Shown here: positions 17,251 to 42,624 of the stretch, one piece after another
Position numbering within the stretch: the first letter of the stretch is position 1
How the letters are laid out: each line of letters starts with the position of its first letter
From: Clostridia bacterium
GTDB taxonomy: Bacteria; Bacillota; Clostridia; Christensenellales; UBA1242
DNA length: 42,624 nucleotides
Assembly (NCBI GenBank): GCA_017505165.1
Contig: JAFVPU010000217.1
Coordinates: 1 to 42,624 of the forward strand
Reading direction: 5' to 3'
Notes under the pieces: model-generated
The model's database searches: none
Told to the model about the DNA's origin: nothing
Seen by the model: only the letters and a program-made list of their open reading frames with translations
Position numbers and translations under genes: made by a program

Positions 17251-20214
17251 TTATGATTTCTTTTTTGTTCTTGTTCTTTTTGTAGAAACAACAGACTCTG
17301 GCATTTTGTGTAGTTCGGCATGAATGGCCCGATCGCACTTTATGCATGTATCTGTTGTTATAACATCATGTTCACATGTTGTTATTCCATGTTCTATGAT
17401 AGACTTCGTAGAAATAGTTGTATTATCAAAACTATCGCAACAGGTATCGCTAAGATAGAACGGTGTTACAGGGGGTTCAACCAAAATAGTTGAAATAATA
17501 TCTGTTGCACAAATCTTGTCTTCAAATCCATACCTGTATTTAACTTTCAGAGATTCTGTATCCACAAAGAATCTGGAAGTCATGTATGTTTCATTGGAAT
17601 CATAATCCTGTGTAATAAAATCACAAAGTGTTAGTGATGTATCTGATGCTCCAACAGAACCTTCAAGAAATGTTACATTATAACTGCAAAGATTTATGAA
17701 CAATTCTTTCAATCTGTTGAATCGGTTCATAGATACGCCGGCATTATCTTCGAGATAATCCGTATCCAATGGGAACAACGCTATTATCAAACTATTACCA
17801 AGTTTAGCATACTCGGTTCTAGCAACAGCAACTGTGTTATTTTCAATCTTTTCGACGAGCTCTTTAATATCAGCATTTGTTTCAATGAACTCTTTGAATG
17901 TCATACCACCAAAGACTTCTAATTTAACAACCTGATTAACAGTTCGATCTTTGATAACATCAGTAACACCAGTATGCTGTCTTGACCAATCGGAGCCATG
18001 TAATTCTTTGTAAATCTGTATATAACCTTGAGCTTGTTCATCTAACAACGTGATGAGTTCTTCATATGTAATTGTATCTCGATTTGGCATCAATCTATCA
18101 ATTAAATACTCATACGTTTCTACCTTAAGAACAGATGAATAAGAACTCAATCCTTGTTTCCATATGAACTCTTGATGTTTCCATCCGTTATACGGCATTT
18201 TAAAATCAGCAACAAGTGTATTTGCTTGCGTTTTCAATTTCCATACACGAACTGAATCAACATCTTCGAATTCAATAGTTGATGAACCACTTGTGTTAGT
18301 CCACACCCATTTTGTAGAATGAAGACTATCATCAACAATATAATAATCTCCTTTGATACTATCTGGGAGATCATCTCCTGTAAGAGACATTTTCGTAGGA
18401 ACAATTCTCAGAATATCAGTCGTATTAAACTTATGATTATTCCATTTGAACGTTTCTCTTATTGGATCAAACGATTCTTTGTAAGGCACTGTCAGATAAA
18501 TATACGGATACGATTTGGCATCATCGTTTTCATACCATCCGAGTTCTTTCAGTGCACAATACCACACAAGGCCTATTGCATCAACAACAGATATATTTAC
18601 AGAATAACTCATTCCATCAGGAACAAAACTGATAATGTAATCAGCTTGTCCGATAGCAGCTCTATACAACAACGACTCGGTCATGAATCTAGAATAGATC
18701 TGTTTAAATAGAGTTGAAACTGTAGTTTTAGAAATCTCCAAAACTTTTGTAACAAATGCCGTATGTGGTGTATTTGTAAACAACTTCGTTTGTTCTTCAG
18801 TTGATTTCTCAAACATGAATTGATTCTGATATTCAAGACCAGCTTCTCTTTCTTTGTCGTATAGACTCTGTAGAGATTCGATAGATCCTGAATTCATTTC
18901 TTGAAATAAACTCTTTCTATAATCAAAAGCATGTAGTTCATCATAGAACTTCATTGTTTTGTTAAGATATGATACATCGTTATTGTCGATATTTTTAAGA
19001 GTATCCAATACTGTTTCACCAACAACAATGGAATCAACAACAGGATAAGTCTTACAAGTTTCTTCAAACTTTTGTTCCTTATCCTTATCTTCAGTATTGA
19101 CCTTGGTTTGCAAAATATTCTTACCAGAAATTTCAATATTCCATTCTGAAAGAAGTTTATGGGCAAGAAGAATCAAGTTAAAATCTGATCCTCTATTTCT
19201 CAAAAGATATGGATAGTTTCTATATAAGAATAAAGCTTGTTTCATATTAAGAACATCACTGTAGTCATCTAAACCATGTGATTTTAGATATTCCCAAATG
19301 TGATATTCATGTGCTGCAGACGTTCTGATATTTACAATACGCTGCTTCATCAATGCAAGTAGCAATGTGTTCCAAATCTTCGACTGAATATCAAGTGCGT
19401 ATAGATCTTCATATACGAATTCGGACACATCCCATCTACGTTTTATCAGTTCCAGTATATCTAGAACGCATGTATACATTGTTGTTCGTTCATTCTCTCT
19501 AAGTTGTGTTAAATCACAACTAATGAGTGAATAATTACTCGCATTTACACACGCTTCGAGTGATGGAACAGGGTAAACAACAGCTTTAATTATGTCTACC
19601 ATGAGAGGGTAAGACTCGCACAATTTTGAATAATAGCGACTCGGCATCCTATACAGCGAAGCAGTCTTTTGGTGTTCTTTGCTCTTTAATGTAGTTGAAT
19701 TGAATGGAATAACTTTATGAGTATCGATTGAGTTGATTGTTATCAACTCATCGAATTTTTTATAAAGTAATTTCACAGGACAGATCTGCCCATAGTACCA
19801 AACACAATTAGGATAAACTCGTTTGACAGTTCCGTCAATATTAGCAAAATATGAACGAAGTTTAACGTGTATTCCATTTATTGTTTGATACTCAACAACA
19901 TCCGAATCCATCGGAAGAGCAACATAATCGAACCCATAATCAACTGCAAGTTGTGCATCGGATATAGTAAGATCAGAATGATCATCTTCATCAAAGGCAG
20001 GAATACCTGCTACTGATCTAAATTGATCAAAAGATTCATAAGCACACTTACCAAGAAGATGTCTATAATACGGATGGAGTTCATCTGGTAGCTTACCAAT
20101 GAAAGCATCTGCTACGTAGGTTTCTTCCATCTGATGTTTAAAGTACTCATTCTTGATTGTCATCGTCTTAAGGAATCTTGTGATTTCTCTGATGTACAGT
20201 TCAAGTTGAATCAT
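17251..20214 (-). CDS. large hypothetical protein (987 aa), probably structural
   Basis: I trimmed ORF track entry 17251-20229 (GTG start) to ATG 20214 (MIQLELYIREI), which has GGTGAAAGG upstream. No Walker or other catalytic motif seen. Confidence 0.7.
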   Translation of the reverse strand: MIQLELYIREITRFLKTMTIKNEYFKHQMEETYVADAFIGKLPDELHPYYRHLLGKCAYESFDQFRSVAGIPAFDEDDHSDLTISDAQLAVDYGFDYVALPMDSDVVEYQTINGIHVKLRSYFANIDGTVKRVYPNCVWYYGQICPVKLLYKKFDELITINSIDTHKVIPFNSTTLKSKEHQKTASLYRMPSRYYSKLCESYPLMVDIIKAVVYPVPSLEACVNASNYSLISCDLTQLRENERTTMYTCVLDILELIKRRWDVSEFVYEDLYALDIQSKIWNTLLLALMKQRIVNIRTSAAHEYHIWEYLKSHGLDDYSDVLNMKQALFLYRNYPYLLRNRGSDFNLILLAHKLLSEWNIEISGKNILQTKVNTEDKDKEQKFEETCKTYPVVDSIVVGETVLDTLKNIDNNDVSYLNKTMKFYDELHAFDYRKSLFQEMNSGSIESLQSLYDKEREAGLEYQNQFMFEKSTEEQTKLFTNTPHTAFVTKVLEISKTTVSTLFKQIYSRFMTESLLYRAAIGQADYIISFVPDGMSYSVNISVVDAIGLVWYCALKELGWYENDDAKSYPYIYLTVPYKESFDPIRETFKWNNHKFNTTDILRIVPTKMSLTGDDLPDSIKGDYYIVDDSLHSTKWVWTNTSGSSTIEFEDVDSVRVWKLKTQANTLVADFKMPYNGWKHQEFIWKQGLSSYSSVLKVETYEYLIDRLMPNRDTITYEELITLLDEQAQGYIQIYKELHGSDWSRQHTGVTDVIKDRTVNQVVKLEVFGGMTFKEFIETNADIKELVEKIENNTVAVARTEYAKLGNSLIIALFPLDTDYLEDNAGVSMNRFNRLKELFINLCSYNVTFLEGSVGASDTSLTLCDFITQDYDSNETYMTSRFFVDTESLKVKYRYGFEDKICATDIISTILVEPPVTPFYLSDTCCDSFDNTTISTKSIIEHGITTCEHDVITTDTCIKCDRAIHAELHKMPESVVSTKRTRTKKKS

Positions 20215-35535: not shown

Positions 35536-35547
35536 ATTGGAGTTAAT

Positions 35548-35751
35548 ATGGCAAATATTGCATTCGACATTTCTAGTGCGCTGTATGTTGAAGGTGCACA
35601 GAAAAATTTTCAACCAGATGAAAATGGTGTGTGGAAAGACTTTCCTGTTATGGTAATAGGAAAAGTAAGTCGCAACAACAAGGAGTATGAAGTAAACTCC
35701 ATGGTAGACGCTATCACCAATCCTGGTTCTATTTTTTATAAAAAACTTTAA
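35548..35751 (+). CDS. T4 gp21-like prohead protease, N-terminal fragment (67 aa) ending at an in-frame TAA
   Basis: TGGAG RBS. ...KVSRNNKEYEVNSMVDAI... resembles gp21 ...VVNRNKRLYPKRILEKAV... It is in the same frame as 35752-36333, separated from it only by TAA 35749-35751. Confidence 0.55.
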   Translation: MANIAFDISSALYVEGAQKNFQPDENGVWKDFPVMVIGKVSRNNKEYEVNSMVDAITNPGSIFYKKL

Positions 35752-36333
35752 ATGGGTCAGCTTCACGGAGAATACGGACATCCTCTCGTTCTTTGTGAAA
35801 AAGACCTTCCTCGCATTGCTGTTGTTGATCCAACAAAAGTATCACATGTTATTCACAGTGTGAGATGTGGTGAACCAACAGAAAAAGGTCATCGCATCGT
35901 CTATGCTGACATTGAACCATTTGGTCCATATGGCGAGTATCTTGAAAAATCTCTTCGTAATCCAAGAATCAACACAGCATTCTCTTTGAGAAGTTTGGTT
36001 TCTAAAATCGGAACTTCTGGAAACGTGATCAAACAGAGAGTTACAGCGCTTATCACGATTGATGCTGTAGACGCACCTGGTTACGCAGAAGCATCAAAAG
36101 TCCGTGTTCCTTCTATGGAAGGAATCAGTATCGATATTGAGCATCCTGAAGATCACCTAGAAGAGCTTGCTATGGCATGCGGATGTGAGTCCGTAGATGA
36201 TCAACAATTGCTTGATACTTTACAAGTCAATAAGGTTGAAATCAAACACAGTATCAATGGTATCGTCGATGTCAATGGTCGACTCATATCTACTTCAAAC
36301 GGAAAGAAATCACTCTTTCACGAGTTATTCTAA
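35752..36333 (+). CDS. T4 gp21-like prohead protease, catalytic portion (193 aa)
   Basis: GEYGHP ~ gp21 GELNHP; AFSLRSLVS ~ GVSSRGLGS; ITIDAVDAPGYAEA ~ VGVDAVWGPSAPDA (gp21 sequence recalled from memory). ATG 35752 has no Shine-Dalgarno and directly abuts the TAA of the upstream fragment. Confidence 0.6.
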   Translation: MGQLHGEYGHPLVLCEKDLPRIAVVDPTKVSHVIHSVRCGEPTEKGHRIVYADIEPFGPYGEYLEKSLRNPRINTAFSLRSLVSKIGTSGNVIKQRVTALITIDAVDAPGYAEASKVRVPSMEGISIDIEHPEDHLEELAMACGCESVDDQQLLDTLQVNKVEIKHSINGIVDVNGRLISTSNGKKSLFHELF

Positions 36334-36350: not shown

Positions 36351-37034
36351 ATGTACGATTACGACGAATCAGAAGCATCGTTTTTCGACGAGCTTCAGGT
36401 AGCACCTCCAGTTGCACCAATTGAAAGTCCTGCTAACCCTGTAAATCCTAATGCACCAAAAGTGCCTGGGAATATTCCTATTGGATCTCCTATGGAGTCT
36501 GGGTTTGTAACAGTTATTCCTAATGGAGAACGTAAAAAGTATGTTTGCAATATCGACTGGTTTGTTGGAAAACCAGATCCGTACATGAACATCACACATA
36601 TTCTCTATACTGCTGAACCTGGTGACGAAGTTGTGTTCAATTTGTATTCTTATGGAGGTTCTGTTGAAACAGGATGCATGATCATCAATGCTATCAAGAA
36701 TACTAAAGCGACCGTTACAACAGTGGCGTTTGGATTGTGTGCATCTATCGCTGCTATGATCTGGTCATGTGGACACATACGTGAAGTTATGCCAACCGCT
36801 ACTATCATGTACCATATGCCATCTGGTATGGTTTTTGGTAAAACAGCAGATAATGAAGAAGAATCTCGTCATATCCAAGGATACTTCAGTGAATTCATGC
36901 GTGAAGTTACTAAAGGTATCCTAACTGAAGATGAACTTGATAAGATCATCAATAAACGTATGGATATGTTTATCCCTGCAGCAACTATTCAAGCAAGACT
37001 TGCTGTAACTAAAGAGGAGAATACAAATGAGTAA
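36351..37034 (+). CDS. ClpP-family (clan SK, S14-like) serine peptidase (227 aa)
   Basis: AAAGGAG RBS. VVFNLYSYGGSVETGCMIINAIKNTKATVTTVAFGLCASIAAMIWSCG...IMYHMPSG...KRMDMFIPA aligns with E. coli ClpP [43 protein letters not shown]...VMIHQPLG...RDRFLSA. Ser, His and Asp all fall at the expected positions. It has a Pro-rich N-terminal extension. Confidence 0.7.
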   Translation: MYDYDESEASFFDELQVAPPVAPIESPANPVNPNAPKVPGNIPIGSPMESGFVTVIPNGERKKYVCNIDWFVGKPDPYMNITHILYTAEPGDEVVFNLYSYGGSVETGCMIINAIKNTKATVTTVAFGLCASIAAMIWSCGHIREVMPTATIMYHMPSGMVFGKTADNEEESRHIQGYFSEFMREVTKGILTEDELDKIINKRMDMFIPAATIQARLAVTKEENTNE

Positions 37035-37785
37035 ATTTAATCTCTTTGGTTCTGATGATCGCCCTATCGAAACTTTTGGTGAAGTAACATTCAAAGAAAG
37101 TCATGAAGAAATTATTCCATCTAACGAATCTGTTAGTTTGGAAACTATCAATGCATACGATATGAATGAGCGTAAACAGATGAGTGCTGCTATATTGAGT
37201 AACAAAAGCAACTTTTTGGATTGTGTTTGTGATGGTGGTCCTAGAAAGAAACCACTTATCTTCACAAAAACTATCTGCAAAGAAACAAAAAGCTGTTGCT
37301 GGGAGTTCTTCCTTAATTATATCTGTTTCACAGTAACCAATGATTTCATCACTAAACTCGAACAAGTTAAAGAAAATGATTGTGTTCTTATTCACGGACC
37401 TGCTTGTTGTTACACTGATGATGCTGAAGTTATTTGTGCTGCAATCAGTCGTTGTAAAGCAAAAGAAAAACTTATCAGTTCTCCTTATATCTTAGATATC
37501 GGAGCTGCTTCTATTCTGCTTACAGCAACCAAAATCATTCATTCTGTATGTAACCTCATTCGTCTCAGTCCTCCAATGGTGTCAGGAGGAGGTGCTATGC
37601 AAGATGCACGTATGACTTTTGAAAACAATGTTTACAGAAACACTATCGTTATTAAGAACTTGCTTAAAGCTGGTTTTATTACACAAGATGAATACAATCA
37701 TCTTGTCGAAGAACAAGGTGGTGTGTGTCTTCATGGTAAACGTTTGAAAGAGATCATTGATATCTTCAATCAAAAACATGCATAA
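37027..37785 (+). CDS. ClpP-like paralog, probably catalytically inactive (252 aa)
   Basis: AGAGGAGA RBS. 8-nt overlap with 36351-37034. CVLIHGPACCYTDDAEVICAAI...ILDIGAASILLTA...LIRLSPPMVSGGG...ITQDEYNHLVEEQGG.CLHGKRL follows the ClpP fold pattern. The Ser is retained in GAAS, but the His of the (M/I)xHxP motif is replaced (RLSPP). Confidence 0.5.
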   Translation: MSKFNLFGSDDRPIETFGEVTFKESHEEIIPSNESVSLETINAYDMNERKQMSAAILSNKSNFLDCVCDGGPRKKPLIFTKTICKETKSCCWEFFLNYICFTVTNDFITKLEQVKENDCVLIHGPACCYTDDAEVICAAISRCKAKEKLISSPYILDIGAASILLTATKIIHSVCNLIRLSPPMVSGGGAMQDARMTFENNVYRNTIVIKNLLKAGFITQDEYNHLVEEQGGVCLHGKRLKEIIDIFNQKHA

Positions 37786-38000: not shown

Positions 38001-39242
38001 ATGAATGTTATTAAGCGTAATGGTGATGTTGTAGAATTTGATTCTTCTAAAATTACCAAAGCCATTGAAAAAGCAAACAATAAAGTCGAAAATCGGTTCA
38101 GACTTCATATGCTCCCGAGAGATATCGCAAGAGAACTTTCAAACGATATTGGCAAACGTGAAAGCATCAGTGTTGAAGAGATTCAGGATCTTGTAGAGAA
38201 GAAACTCTATGAAGTTGGAGCTTCATTCGAACTTATCAAAGAATACGTAACTTATCGGTATCGCCGTTCGCTTGAACGTGATAAGTATAACGCTTTCATT
38301 TCAGGGATCAAAGAAAAACTCCAAGCAAAGAATGTAAAAAATCAGAATGCTAATGTTGATGAACATTCGTTTAGTGGTCGTTATGGAGAAGCAACCAACT
38401 ACATGACAAAAGAGATTGCTCTTACTACCAGACTTTCTCCTATGGCTAGAAACAATCACCTTGGAAATATGATTTATATTCACGATCTCGATCATTACGA
38501 ATTGGGAGATCACAACTGTCTCACAATTCCATTCGACGATCTTCTTAAAAACGGTTTTGAAATAAGACAGACCGATATCCGTACAGCTAGGAGCGTTGAT
38601 ACCGCATTTCAGTTATTGGCTGTTATTTTCCAGCTACAGAGTCTTAATCAGTTTGGTGGAGTCAGCTCTGGACATCTTGACCACACAATGGTACCATATG
38701 TACGTATTTCATTTTACAAACATTTCAAAGATGGTCTTGAATTCGTTGAAGAAGTAGACAAAACTGATGTCATTTGGACTAAGATTTGCGATTCTCTTTC
38801 TGTTGATGATGAAATCTACAAGTCTCACAAGAAAGCATACAATTATGCAACACGTATGACATTGAAAGAAATACGTCAAGCTGTTGAAGGAATGTTCCAT
38901 AATCTGAATTCGCTCCAAAGTAGAGCAGGTGGACAACTTCCATTCACTTCAATCAACTATGGTACTTGTACTAATACTGAAGGTAGATGGATAATCAAAA
39001 ACCTTCTTGAAGTTAATATTGAAGGTATCGGTAAGAACAAAAGAACTCCCATATTTCCATGTTCTATCTTCCAGTGTATGAAAGGTGTTAATCGACATCC
39101 GGGTGATCCAAATTACGATATGTTCAGGTTGGCACTTAAATCAACAGCATCTAGACTTTACCCCAATTATGTAAATTGTGATTGGTCTGGTAATGCTGGT
39201 TATGATATCAATGATCCAAAAACATACATGTCCACAATGGGT
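38001..39242 (+). CDS. nrdD: anaerobic ribonucleoside-triphosphate reductase NrdD, exon 1 of 3 (414 codons)
   Basis: GAAGGAG RBS. ATP-cone N-terminus MNVIKRNGDVVEFDSSKITKAIEKA. FPCSIFQCMKGVNRHPGDPNYDMFRLALKSTASRLYPN is typical of NrdD. The exon ends ...STMG (GGT, last base T 39242). The remaining 11 codons of the track ORF are intron sequence. Confidence 0.85.
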
Positions 39243-39497
39243 AAGTGTAAATGCAGCCCATTTAAAACTTTCTGAACCTCGCCCGAGGGTGTAGTAGTGT
39301 TAATCTACTGCTAACGGTTAGGACTCTATGAGTTGAGACCGTGCTAAATTCTACATATGTAGATAAATGTGTATCGACTATCCCCGATGAATGTAAGGGA
39401 GTAGGGTGTGAGATAGGCACACACTCGAAGCGGAAAGCTATATTAGTATTAATATAGAAGATATAGTCAGTGTCATCAGTGATGATGAATTAAAACG
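39243..39497 (+). mobile_element. group I intron (IA2, T4 td-like core), ORF-less, 255 nt
   Basis: The 5' exon ends in U. Exon AAUGGGU (39236-39242) pairs with intron GCCCAUU (39256-39262), giving the U.G wobble at the splice site. The intron ends in G 39497. Core strings CCGUGCUAAAUU, AUAAAUG, CGACUAUCCC, GGGAGUAGGGU, ACUCGAA and AGAUAUAGUC match the T4 td intron as I recall it. P6 is a simple hairpin, ucuacauauguaga. Confidence 0.8.
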
Positions 39498-39995
39498 TGC
39501 AGAACAACCAACGGCTTTGATATCAACGGTCTCGGACAGCAAAAAGATGGTCGTGGTAATATCTGTCCTGTAACTATCATTCTTCCTGAGCTTGCTATGC
39601 AGGTTAAAGCAAGAGAATACAAAAAACTATCGAGTAAAGATAACATTTCTTTGTTCCTTGAACTTCTTGATAAAAAGATTCATGAAGCCAAAGACATGCT
39701 TCTTGAAAGATTTGAGTGGATATGTTCTCAATCTCCTGAATGTGCCAAATTTATGTACGATAACAACGTGATGGCAGGTTATGTTCCTGAAGAAGGAATT
39801 AGAAGTGCTCTCAAACATGGTACAATTGTCATCGGTCAGCTTGGTCTTGCTGAGTGTTTACAAATATTGGTTGGTTGTGATCATACTGAACCACTTGGTA
39901 TGAAATTAGCAAAACTTATTGAACAACTTTTTAAAGATCGTTGTGCTGAATTCAAACAACAATATAAATTAAACTTTGGTGTTTATTTTACCCCT
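39498..39995 (+). CDS. nrdD: NrdD exon 2 of 3 (166 codons)
   Basis: Starts TGC AGA (CRTTNGFDINGLGQQKDGRGNICPVTIILPELA...), restoring MGCR across the junction. It is in frame with track ORF 39597-40031. It ends ...FGVYFTP (CCT, last base T 39995). Confidence 0.85.
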
Positions 39996-40975
39996 GAATT
40001 CTGTGGGGGCTGCTACAGAGATGTAGCATGAGAAAGTCGGCTAACCGAGAAAACTCGGGTGTGCTCATTATGAGTGCTAACAGGGAACCCAAGAACCCTG
40101 TGCTAAATAGAAACACAACAAAGGATTTGTTAAATGAAAATCGAAAAGATACCTGACGATGCTGTACTTATTCCTGGAACCAAAGATGAATATATCGATA
40201 GACAAGGAAATGTCTATGGACATGATCATCGATCAGGACACAAGGGTGAACCGTTTATACGGGAACAAAACACCGTACATGGTTATAAGTACACAAAAAT
40301 ACGTGGAGTATCTACGAGAGTTCATAGAGTTGTTGCAGAAGTCTTTATTCCAAACCCAGATAACTTACCGATTGTTATGCACAAAAACAATAACAAAGCA
40401 GACAACCGGGTAGAGAATTTAAAATGGGGTACCATTAAAGAAAATACGCAACAAGCAGTTGACGATGGATTAATGGTGAACGCTAAAGGTGCTGAGGATT
40501 CACAAAGCATCCCTTGCGACATGTATGATACAGTTACAAACAAACGCATTGCTTCATTTGGTTCCACATCAGAAGCAATGCGTGCAACAGGTATCAATAA
40601 AGTAACAATATGTGCCCAAATCCGCTCATCTGCACCAATACGTAAACCTGTCTACTTCACGCGCAAAGACGAAGGAAGTAGACCTCATGACATTGTAGTG
40701 GCGACCGATTTAAAAACTGGTGAAGAAATTGGAAGATATCCAAACGTAGGACGTGCCTCGGCAGCAACTGGCATTCCTCAAAACACCATTGCTCAACAAT
40801 GTCAAACTGGAAAACGTAAATGGTCTAAAACAAACGTGGTATTTTCACGTGTGTTTCTTAAAGGTGAAGAGATCATCGAAAGCGATAAGCGAGTAGAGTA
40901 GTGTATGAGTGAAACTCTCATATGCGAAAGACCGACACCCACCAGTGCGGTGGGATAAAATATGATCCATTAAAG
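39996..40975 (+). mobile_element. group I intron carrying an HNH homing endonuclease gene, 980 nt
   Basis: The 5' exon ends in U. Exon CCCCU pairs with intron GGGGG (40005-40009), including a U.G pair. GCUAACAGGGAACC...CCCUGUGCUAAAU resembles td CUAAACGGGGAACC...CCCGUGCUAAAU. The ORF follows in the position of the P6 loop. The intron ends in G 40975. Removing it restores TP|AENLC. Confidence 0.75.
40134..40901 (+). CDS. intron-encoded HNH homing endonuclease, I-HmuI-like (255 aa)
   Basis: AAAGGA RBS. VHRVVAEVFIPNPDNLPIVMHKNNNKADNRVENLKWGTIKEN is the HNH_3 / I-HmuI-type motif. It is followed by two helix-turn-helix-like modules (GSTSEAMRATGINKVTICAQI and PNVGRASAATGIPQNTIAQQC), NUMOD/IENR-like. 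Confidence 0.8.
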   Translation: MKIEKIPDDAVLIPGTKDEYIDRQGNVYGHDHRSGHKGEPFIREQNTVHGYKYTKIRGVSTRVHRVVAEVFIPNPDNLPIVMHKNNNKADNRVENLKWGTIKENTQQAVDDGLMVNAKGAEDSQSIPCDMYDTVTNKRIASFGSTSEAMRATGINKVTICAQIRSSAPIRKPVYFTRKDEGSRPHDIVVATDLKTGEEIGRYPNVGRASAATGIPQNTIAQQCQTGKRKWSKTNVVFSRVFLKGEEIIESDKRVE

Positions 40976-41443
40976 GCAGAAAACCTCTGTTATACAGCTA
41001 TGCTTAAGTTCAAAGAAAAATGGGGTGAAATACCAAACGTTTCAGATAGAGACTTCTTTACTAATTCAATACATGTTCCTGTGTGGAAAAAGATGACTCC
41101 TTTTGAAAAGATCGATATTGAATCTCAGCTCACAGGATACAGCAATGCTGGATGTATAACTTACATTGAACTAGATTCTAGTTGTAAAAATAACATCGAT
41201 TCTATCGAATCTATTGTCAATTACGCAATGGATAAAGATATTCCATATTTCGCTATCAATGTACCAAATGACCAGTGCTCAGAATGTGGATACATTGATG
41301 AAATAGGAACCAACTGTCCTGTATGTGGAAACGATGATATCAAACGTCTTCGCAGAGTCACAGGATACTTAACAGGAAACTACACTACTGCTTTCAACTA
41401 TGGAAAGCAGAAAGAAGTTGAAGCTCGCGTTAAACATTGCTAA
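40976..41443 (+). CDS. nrdD: NrdD exon 3 of 3 (155 codons plus stop)
   Basis: Starts GCA GAA AAC (AENLCYTAMLKF...). Contains the CSEC...CPVC zinc ribbon and the glycyl-radical motif RRVTGYLTG. The upstream 18 codons of track ORF 40922-41443 are intron sequence. Confidence 0.85.
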   Translation, partial: AENLCYTAMLKFKEKWGEIPNVSDRDFFTNSIHVPVWKKMTPFEKIDIESQLTGYSNAGCITYIELDSSCKNNIDSIESIVNYAMDKDIPYFAINVPNDQCSECGYIDEIGTNCPVCGNDDIKRLRRVTGYLTGNYTTAFNYGKQKEVEARVKHC

Positions 41444-42481: not shown

Positions 42482-42624
42482 ATGGAATGTATAATAAAAG
42501 ATACATTACCCTCAAATAATAACAAAGATTGTTCTGCTGATTTAGTAACTGTAACTAGAAGTAATTTAAATAAAGGTTATGTAATATCAGAAGGAGAATA
42601 TTATAATGAATTAAGCTGCGTTAC
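42482..42624 (+). CDS. possible start of a further ORF running off the right edge
   Basis: Hand translation from ATG 42482 (MECIIKDTLPSNNNKDCSADLVTVTRSNLNKGYVISEGEYYNELSCV...) stays open to the window end. No convincing RBS and only 47 codons are visible. Confidence 0.25.
   Translation, partial: MECIIKDTLPSNNNKDCSADLVTVTRSNLNKGYVISEGEYYNELSCV

Follow-up and report, generated by a model that had tools for sequence, protein, structure and literature searches.

Two adjacent open reading frames in the window, by which we mean the whole stretch of 42,624 nucleotides analysed here, raise the question of whether a phage prohead protease is built from two pieces, completed by readthrough of a stop codon, or interrupted by a nonsense mutation. 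The ORFs at 35548-35751 (67 codons and TAA) and 35752-36333 (193 codons and TAA) lie in one reading frame (204 nt, or 68 codons), and their sole separator is the TAA at 35749-35751, which is followed directly by ATG (AAA AAA CTT TAA ATG GGT CAG). The original prediction described this arrangement, placed the stop approximately ten residues ahead of the His motif and inside the fold, and saw no Shine-Dalgarno (SD) sequence at ATG 35752. Our reading of the sequence confirms the arrangement, the alignments and an AlphaFold model agree with the position of the stop, and the statement on the SD holds as well, given that most other starts in the window have GGAG or AGGA upstream at a normal spacing.

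The two pieces and their protease family

Both pieces belong to one protease, in this order, as judged from the profile scores. The C-terminal piece alone matches the Pfam family Peptidase_S80 (PF20034) with 85.3 bits (4.7e-24; profile positions 62-208), whereas the joined sequence reaches 105.1 bits (E 4.1e-30; profile positions 10-208 of 229), the curated cut-off of the family being 23.4 bits. Such an ordered match of both pieces to a single protease profile is far above chance. PF20034 is the only family reported by the Pfam search, and the joined sequence also matches PHROG 3014, annotated as 'head maturation protease' (2.6e-32). Comparison of the joined sequence with known proteases by profile and by structure had been proposed as a check on the original prediction, and both routes led to a match. 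When a family profile of 71 sequences was aligned to phiKZ gp175 using hhalign, the probability was 99.3% (E 9.1e-21), and this alignment runs unbroken across the TAA-ATG junction; gp175 is the type enzyme of MEROPS family S80 (PMC5694885). The same profile gave no significant match to the real T4 gp21 sequence (E 0.041, probability 1.3%), and an HMM search of PDB sequences with the family profile returned no match at E <= 1. At the level of structure, a Foldseek search of the PDB retrieved chains A-C of 5JBL (T4 gp21) as the only matches with E <= 0.001, the best of them at E 7.9e-6 with a probability of 1.00 and a TM of 0.64 normalised to the target. The AlphaFold model has a mean pLDDT of 72.7, with about 80-96 in the core.

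The colinear alignment with gp21 described in the original prediction is recovered in part: its four motif pairs all reappear in the alignment to the real gp21 sequence, but the match at the sequence level is not significant. Similarly, the description as a 'gp21-like prohead protease' is correct with regard to function and to the gp21 fold seen in 5JBL, whereas the family is S80, represented by phiKZ gp175, and not gp21/S77. We firmly conclude that the protease is gp21-like in fold and S80 by family, and that the gene is a new, distant member of this known family.

The positions of the catalytic triad were taken from gp245 (H77/S153/D178; PMC5694885). In the alignments, His-78 corresponds to the H of 'EYKHP' in gp175 and of 'GELNHP' in T4 gp21, Ser-146 to 'YCSVRS' and 'GVSSRG', and Asp-172 to the D of 'TWDMV' and of 'VDAV' (Table 1). 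The entire predicted triad is contained in the C-terminal fragment (Met-69 to Phe-261), together with the C-terminal region. The stop occupies codon 68, 10 residues from the invariant His at codon 78, and sits inside the conserved block S-x-F-Y-K-K-L-x-x-G-Q-L-x-G-E-x-x-H-P. In the AlphaFold model, residue 68 ends a helix (62-68) that is followed by a loop (69-72) and a strand (73-76), so the break point is the end of a helix beside a short loop and not an interdomain position. The same model assigns core elements to the N-terminal fragment, namely strands 29-37 and 45-47 and helices 49-57 and 62-68. Two residues of this fragment, G27 and Y47, are invariant in the 71 homologues, and P23, V36, G38, K39, S41, N43, K45, S51, M52, S61, F63 and L67 are conserved in at least 90% of them.

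Table 1. Features of the interrupted protease gene (positions refer to the window)
Feature	Position	Strand	Remarks
Shine-Dalgarno GGAG	35539..35542	+	5 nt 5' of ATG 35548; read from sequence
N-terminal fragment, codons 1-67 of S80 prohead protease	35548..35748	+	100% identical to P0001 residues 1-67
Ochre TAA in place of Lys-68	35749..35751	+	T at 35749; intact allele A (AAA)
C-terminal fragment, 193 aa, codons 69-261 and natural TAA	35752..36333	+	Identical to P0001 residues 69-261
His-78 (CAT), predicted catalytic His, motif GEYGHP	35779..35781	+	Invariant in 71 homologues; gp175/gp21 alignment
Ser-146 (TCT), predicted catalytic Ser, motif AFSLRS	35983..35985	+	Invariant in 71 homologues; gp175/gp21 alignment
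Asp-172 (GAT), predicted third catalytic residue, motif TIDAVD	36061..36063	+	At least 90% conserved; homology only

The two start codons differ in their upstream regions. The sequence 5' of ATG 35548, including its SD, is unchanged in contigs carrying the intact allele (see below). Directly 5' of ATG 35752, the sequence reads tataaaaaactttaa, which contains no SD motif, and neither GGAG nor AGGA occurs in the upstream 25 nt (ttctattttttataaaaaactttaa).

The contig derives from an uncultured phiKZ-like jumbo phage, as is evident from the neighbouring genes and from the GenBank matches. Neighbours of the protease gene in the window match phiKZ_gp29PR, Phage_TTP_14, DUF7194 and DUF7208, which form a phiKZ-like structural module, and the phage protease matches in GenBank (191-192 records) all belong to named jumbo phages. 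The visible 42.6 kb are probably part of a genome of more than 200 kb. Gene order around the protease is kept in relatives. Cultured phages are only remotely related: the protease shares no more than about 34% identity with any of their homologues, and blastn against GenBank phages found no close DNA relative, with distant matches at the protein level only.

Origin and distribution of the TAA allele

The stop is a single A-to-T transversion at 35749, which turns AAA (Lys-68) into the ochre codon TAA (K68*). The best match of the joined protein, P0001 (261 aa), equals it at every residue and carries Lys at position 68. Its contig, scaffold_955 of ENA ERZ28653803, matches the window over a length of 16.9-37.9 kb and departs from it only by A (not T) at 35749, by G (not A) at 38055 and in its own last ~25 nt. 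Likewise, A at 35749 is the only difference in the 1,547 nt shared with the Logan contig SRR32129108_1489149. The TAA is present in a further contig of 31.6 kb, k141_535184 of ENA ERZ27256852, whose only differences from the window are at 17964 and 38055. Records of the 67-aa and 193-aa products exist for exactly two contigs, this one and the 42,624-bp contig that makes up the whole window and is itself deposited in NCBI/ENA. Apart from 35749, the gene equals the intact allele at all bases, relatives that have diverged by 21 nt are intact, and both closer and more distant relatives read AAA or AAG at codon 68. A search of IMG/VR, JGI metagenomes and GTDB genomes found the exact junction pattern in neither allele, and a degenerate version of the pattern recovered one further relative only, which is intact. 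Most likely, the intact allele co-circulates with the TAA allele in one near-clonal phage population. Given that near-identical contigs keep the intact gene, the stop is a recent mutation and not an evolved device for recoding or for splitting the protein. Among the explanations offered in the original prediction, it is the nonsense mutation that prevails: otherwise identical contigs read AAA, no homologue is split, and the comparison of orthologous loci that had been suggested yields a sense codon at this site in relatives.

The survey of homologues extends this picture to more distant members of the family. A search of a large protein database yielded 71 homologues, nearly all of them single chains of 259-287 aa, and the shorter ones (210, 250 and 251 aa) have no stop or gap at the site of codon 68. 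The 70 homologues other than P0001 (29-89% identity), as well as the 261-aa members of the 90% cluster, carry a sense codon and no gap. When 1.84 billion representatives were searched exhaustively with the profile, 1,080 matches emerged, of which we examined the best 150; 147 of these are full-length, one is truncated by a contig end and two are shortened elsewhere. Across the more than 200 homologue clusters examined, there was no split and no stop or gap at the site. S80 proteases are single chains of ~255-300 aa, which applies to the AAA allele and to all homologues examined, but not to the allele in the window. Two kinds of candidates for a split were considered and rejected. The start of P0218 lies no more than 3 residues from the junction, but the gene runs off the edge of a 786-bp contig with its frame still open, and it sets no precedent. 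In several cultured phages, one match covered two annotated features, which in the three phages checked (EL, LAh10 and Aphrodite1) reflects an overlap of a few bases with the upstream gene.

Position 68 varies among family members (K, V, H, R, I, T, L, C or Q), and Met-69 is restricted to the 20 closest relatives. A break at a variable position on a helix/loop boundary also speaks for the explanation favoured below. Purifying selection is evident in relatives over both halves of the gene: 16 synonymous codon differences stand against 4 non-synonymous ones in the nearest relative, and 98-111 against 29-39 in more distant relatives.

We are largely confident that the ochre allele is real and recent and does not reflect an artefact of sequencing or assembly. 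For the true base to be A, the T at 35749 would have to be a consensus error at the TT/AAAA boundary. Some sequencing platforms miscall bases at homopolymer boundaries, and the change (TTAAAA to TTTAAA) lies at such a boundary, converting T2A4 into T3A3 without a change in length, as is typical of homopolymer miscalls; moreover, an otherwise identical assembly has AAA. The window and k141_535184 also end at one identical base, so the two may lack independence through shared or overlapping read sets, and their reads or assembler may be common. Judging by the sample labels (XIEF21, LIUQ22), the same public metagenomes may have been re-assembled by different pipelines. We nevertheless consider an error improbable: T occurs in two contigs that were deposited separately and are distinguished by two further positions, the k141 name (from which we infer a short-read, MEGAHIT-type assembly) points to a kind of data in which majority substitution errors are rare, and the two other SNPs among the assemblies represent genuine microdiversity.

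Expression and fate of the interrupted gene

How, then, is a gene with this stop expressed? TAA ends about two thirds of the genes in the window, where it is the commonest true stop, and reassignment of this codon in the genetic code is therefore ruled out. Frameshifting at the A-rich tract was dismissed as well, because both pieces lie in one frame. The remaining explanations of the original prediction, programmed ochre readthrough and an evolved two-piece protease, are excluded as designs, since the stop is conserved in no relative examined; the split is likewise not conserved in the homologues examined, TAA is the main terminator of the window, and the window revealed no suppressor tRNA or RNA element. 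A different matter is suppression without design, in which an ochre suppressor tRNA of the host or the phage, or context-dependent readthrough, would restore the full-length protease. Almost any inserted residue should be acceptable at position 68, given that nine residues are tolerated there in homologues. Jumbo phage genomes often include tRNA genes in other regions, and only 42.6 kb of this one are visible. Despite these points, we regard suppression as very unlikely: an ARAGORN scan of the 42.6-kb window revealed no tRNA gene, an Rfam scan of the window matched no family, RNA structure at or after the stop is not significant (z = -0.58), and no relative examined conserves the stop. Efficient ochre suppression would also be broadly harmful to a phage that relies on TAA for the majority of its terminations in the window. 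Fold-internal gene splits do exist in phiKZ-like phages, and an evolved, programmed two-piece protease would be comparable to the split RNA polymerase subunits of this group. While the TAA-ATG geometry is indeed that of translationally coupled gene pairs (PMC10666635), we give this idea almost no credence, given that all other bases equal the intact allele, that relatives diverged by 21 nt are intact, that no homologue cluster examined is split, and that the second piece has evolved no SD.

We lean towards a nonsense allele that is real and recent and gives rise to two fragments via termination-reinitiation, irrespective of whether these fragments are active. Ribosomes starting at ATG 35548, with its good SD, would terminate after Leu-67, and a fraction of them would reinitiate at the adjoining AUG (0 nt) to produce a 193-aa fragment. 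This fragment would begin with (M)GQLHGEYGHPLVLCEK and carry His-78, Ser-146, Asp-172 and the C-terminal region. That a fraction of ribosomes would reinitiate is suggested by the immediate vicinity of the AUG and by its location in an unstructured, A/U-rich tract, in which AUG 35752 is unpaired in the predicted RNA fold. The stop-start distance of 0 nt is inside the range of -8 to +10 nt reported as permissive for termination-reinitiation (PMC10666635). In the mutant allele, fortuitous termination-reinitiation at TAA-ATG is plausible, with a yield that is probably reduced because no SD precedes ATG 35752; of five E. coli gene pairs deprived of their SD, three lost 60-90% of reinitiation and a fourth lost it completely (PMC6728339). 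The observed stop abuts the only start that retains His-78, as no start further downstream does, and a reinitiated 193-aa fragment with the full triad is possible for this reason. The 67-aa peptide alone cannot be active, and activity would need non-covalent complementation of the larger fragment by the 67-aa N-terminal one, which contributes conserved core strands and helices.

Whether such fragments sustain the phage is a separate issue. The allele may be tolerated, as indicated by a coincidence and by its genetic background. Of the 95 single-base nonsense mutations possible, one directly precedes an ATG, and it is the one observed; this would happen by chance in about 1% of cases, or 2% if TTG counts as a start. 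In the simplest genealogy of the three haplotypes, TAA arises on an internal branch and its lineage then divides in two, each sub-lineage having one private non-synonymous SNP, at 17964 or 38055 (the wild type having T, A and G at 17964, 35749 and 38055); this topology implies continued replication of TAA genomes. The three 'haplotypes' may, however, be chimeric consensus sequences from a polymorphic sample; the genealogy would then no longer hold, and the allele count would shrink. Tolerance is further challenged by the conservation of the N-terminal 67 residues, which the structural model makes part of the core fold, by a TAA-ATG junction without SD, and by the finding that no natural split was found elsewhere in the S80 family.

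The conserved core in the N-terminal fragment and the restart codon without SD are equally expected if TAA is a null allele of a defective genome, which would replicate only in co-infection with a phage carrying the intact allele. A diffusible protease acting in trans can be supplied to mutant proheads, and the intact allele co-circulates in near-identical DNA. In addition, a Logan contig from run SRR12529307 starts 9 nt past the SNP at 35749, a position that fits an assembly-graph bubble and hints at the presence of both alleles in this run. SPN3US cannot do without its S80 protease, nonsense mutants of which are conditional-lethal (PMC7411985). A null allele could have arisen equally well from any of the 95 nonsense mutations or from a frameshift, yet the sole stop-ATG one was seen (~1-2%). 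Furthermore, TAA is the consensus in two assemblies and on two SNP backgrounds, which implies many rounds of replication and would be hard to achieve for an obligately complemented mutant without a persistently high MOI. Overall, we judge a null allele to be unlikely, albeit a serious contender. If the allele is real, the leading outcome is that reinitiation and fragment complementation keep the phage viable alone, though we would hesitate to call it probable; a null allele that persists through wild-type protease in co-infections is a possibility that ranks behind it, and suppression or other causes account for the remainder. When the reality of the allele is included in the assessment, we propose only tentatively that SD-less reinitiation provides a viable two-piece enzyme and that the split lineage propagates itself in the wild.

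On present evidence, the interruption constitutes no new biological device. Its significance is mainly one of annotation: the deposited proteins of 67 aa and 193 aa represent one S80 gene with a nonsense polymorphism, and the two ORFs should not be taken as evidence for recoding or for a new family of split proteases. Should the TAA lineage be viable alone, the locus would show gene fission at its very first step in nature, with a single mutation having placed a stop next to a start within a folded catalytic domain, and would offer a simple test of how far SD-less reinitiation and fragment complementation can buffer nonsense mutations in phages. Should the allele be null, it would be a candidate for a natural 'cheater' genotype that depends on trans-acting wild-type protease from co-infection.

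Comparison with known proteases, nonsense mutants and coupled genes

When compared to phiKZ gp175 and SPN3US gp245, the protease keeps the His, Ser and Asp motifs and has a similar length (261 aa here, 270 aa in gp175), whereas its chain in the window is broken at codon 68. Unlike the genes for these two proteins, the protease gene of the window lineage is followed directly at its 3' side by a ClpP-family gene. T4 gp21 (5JBL), which has a herpesvirus-assemblin-like fold, presents its His, Ser and Asp motifs in matching order. The record of T4 gene 21 also annotates a shorter product made via internal initiation; however, this product lacks just 22 N-terminal residues, and its start lies within an uninterrupted ORF.

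The SPN3US mutants 245(am59) and 245(am66) are nonsense mutations in a gene of the same family and document the consequences of losing the protease: when unsuppressed, proheads accumulate and no cleavage takes place (PMC7411985). Entry of the SPN3US protease into the prohead appears to be directed by its C-terminal region (PMC7411985). These mutations are laboratory-induced amber (TAG) alleles that truncate the protein at residues 155 and 241, not 68, and a restart fragment with the full triad is not possible in either, since no in-frame AUG follows. The allele in the window, in contrast, is natural, ochre and abuts Met-69.

The closest parallel in terms of geometry is provided by translationally coupled gene pairs (PMC6728339; PMC10666635). 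As in these pairs, stop and start are adjacent (0 nt), and the two products would form one complex; genes for subunits of a complex are the class enriched for such junctions. The junction in the window differs from those of coupled pairs in having no SD, in being born of one recent mutation and in not being conserved.

The interrupted NrdD gene

The anaerobic ribonucleotide reductase gene NrdD was recovered by Pfam search as three collinear pieces within positions 38001-41443 of the window (see the table). Pieces 1 and 2 are separated by an ORF-free gap of 321 nt, and pieces 2 and 3 by a gap of 890 nt, which houses a homing-endonuclease ORF. Judged from the sequence, the two gaps look like intervening sequences, perhaps introns; a scan of the window with Rfam at the gathering threshold returned no group I or II intron. 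In a relative (L009), a 330-aa NrdD piece is followed by a GIY-YIG endonuclease in place of the arrangement seen in the window.

Features of the window outside the S80 protease gene
Feature	Position	Description
SNP	17964	T/A; Thr/Ser, codon 756 of a 992-aa gene, minus strand
ClpP-family protein gene	36351-37034	PF00574, E 2.5e-17; adjoins 3' end of S80 protease gene
252-aa gene	37027-37785	overlaps ClpP-family gene
NrdD piece 1	38001-39275	ATP-cone and NRDD
SNP	38055	A/G; Thr/Ala, codon 19 of NrdD
NrdD piece 2	39597-40031	Pfam NRDD profile 292-414
HNH_3/NUMOD1 homing-endonuclease ORF	40134-40901	inside 890-nt NrdD gap
NrdD piece 3	40922-41443	NRDD profile 415-562 and glycyl-radical domain

Variation among the near-clonal assemblies

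Besides position 35749, in the interrupting TAA of the S80 prohead protease gene, the three near-clonal assemblies (the window, scaffold_955 and k141_535184) differ only at two sites, both non-synonymous, one of which lies in NrdD; the window's NrdD allele has no record in the gene-position collection. At the contig ends, k141_535184 terminates exactly at the window's last base, and the final ~25 nt of scaffold_955 (L001 16938-16962) are unlike the window (compared region 42485-42624). These sequences suggest that just past 42488 there is either a repeat or a junction that varies between strains, or else an artefact of the contig ends.

The prohead protease, its neighbours and T4 gp21

The ClpP-family gene and the overlapping 252-aa gene, whose product gave no match in a Pfam search, lie 3' of the S80 protease gene in the same order in all relatives fetched. 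With the former, the head module has two protease-family genes rather than one, and the phage's requirement for S80 activity could be affected by this. A prohead protease shortened at its N-terminus has a known precedent in T4: the T4 record NC_000866 (L028 3449-4087) annotates an additional, shorter gp21 product whose translation begins at an internal start, 22 codons inside gene 21, and this T4 short form retains the whole fold.
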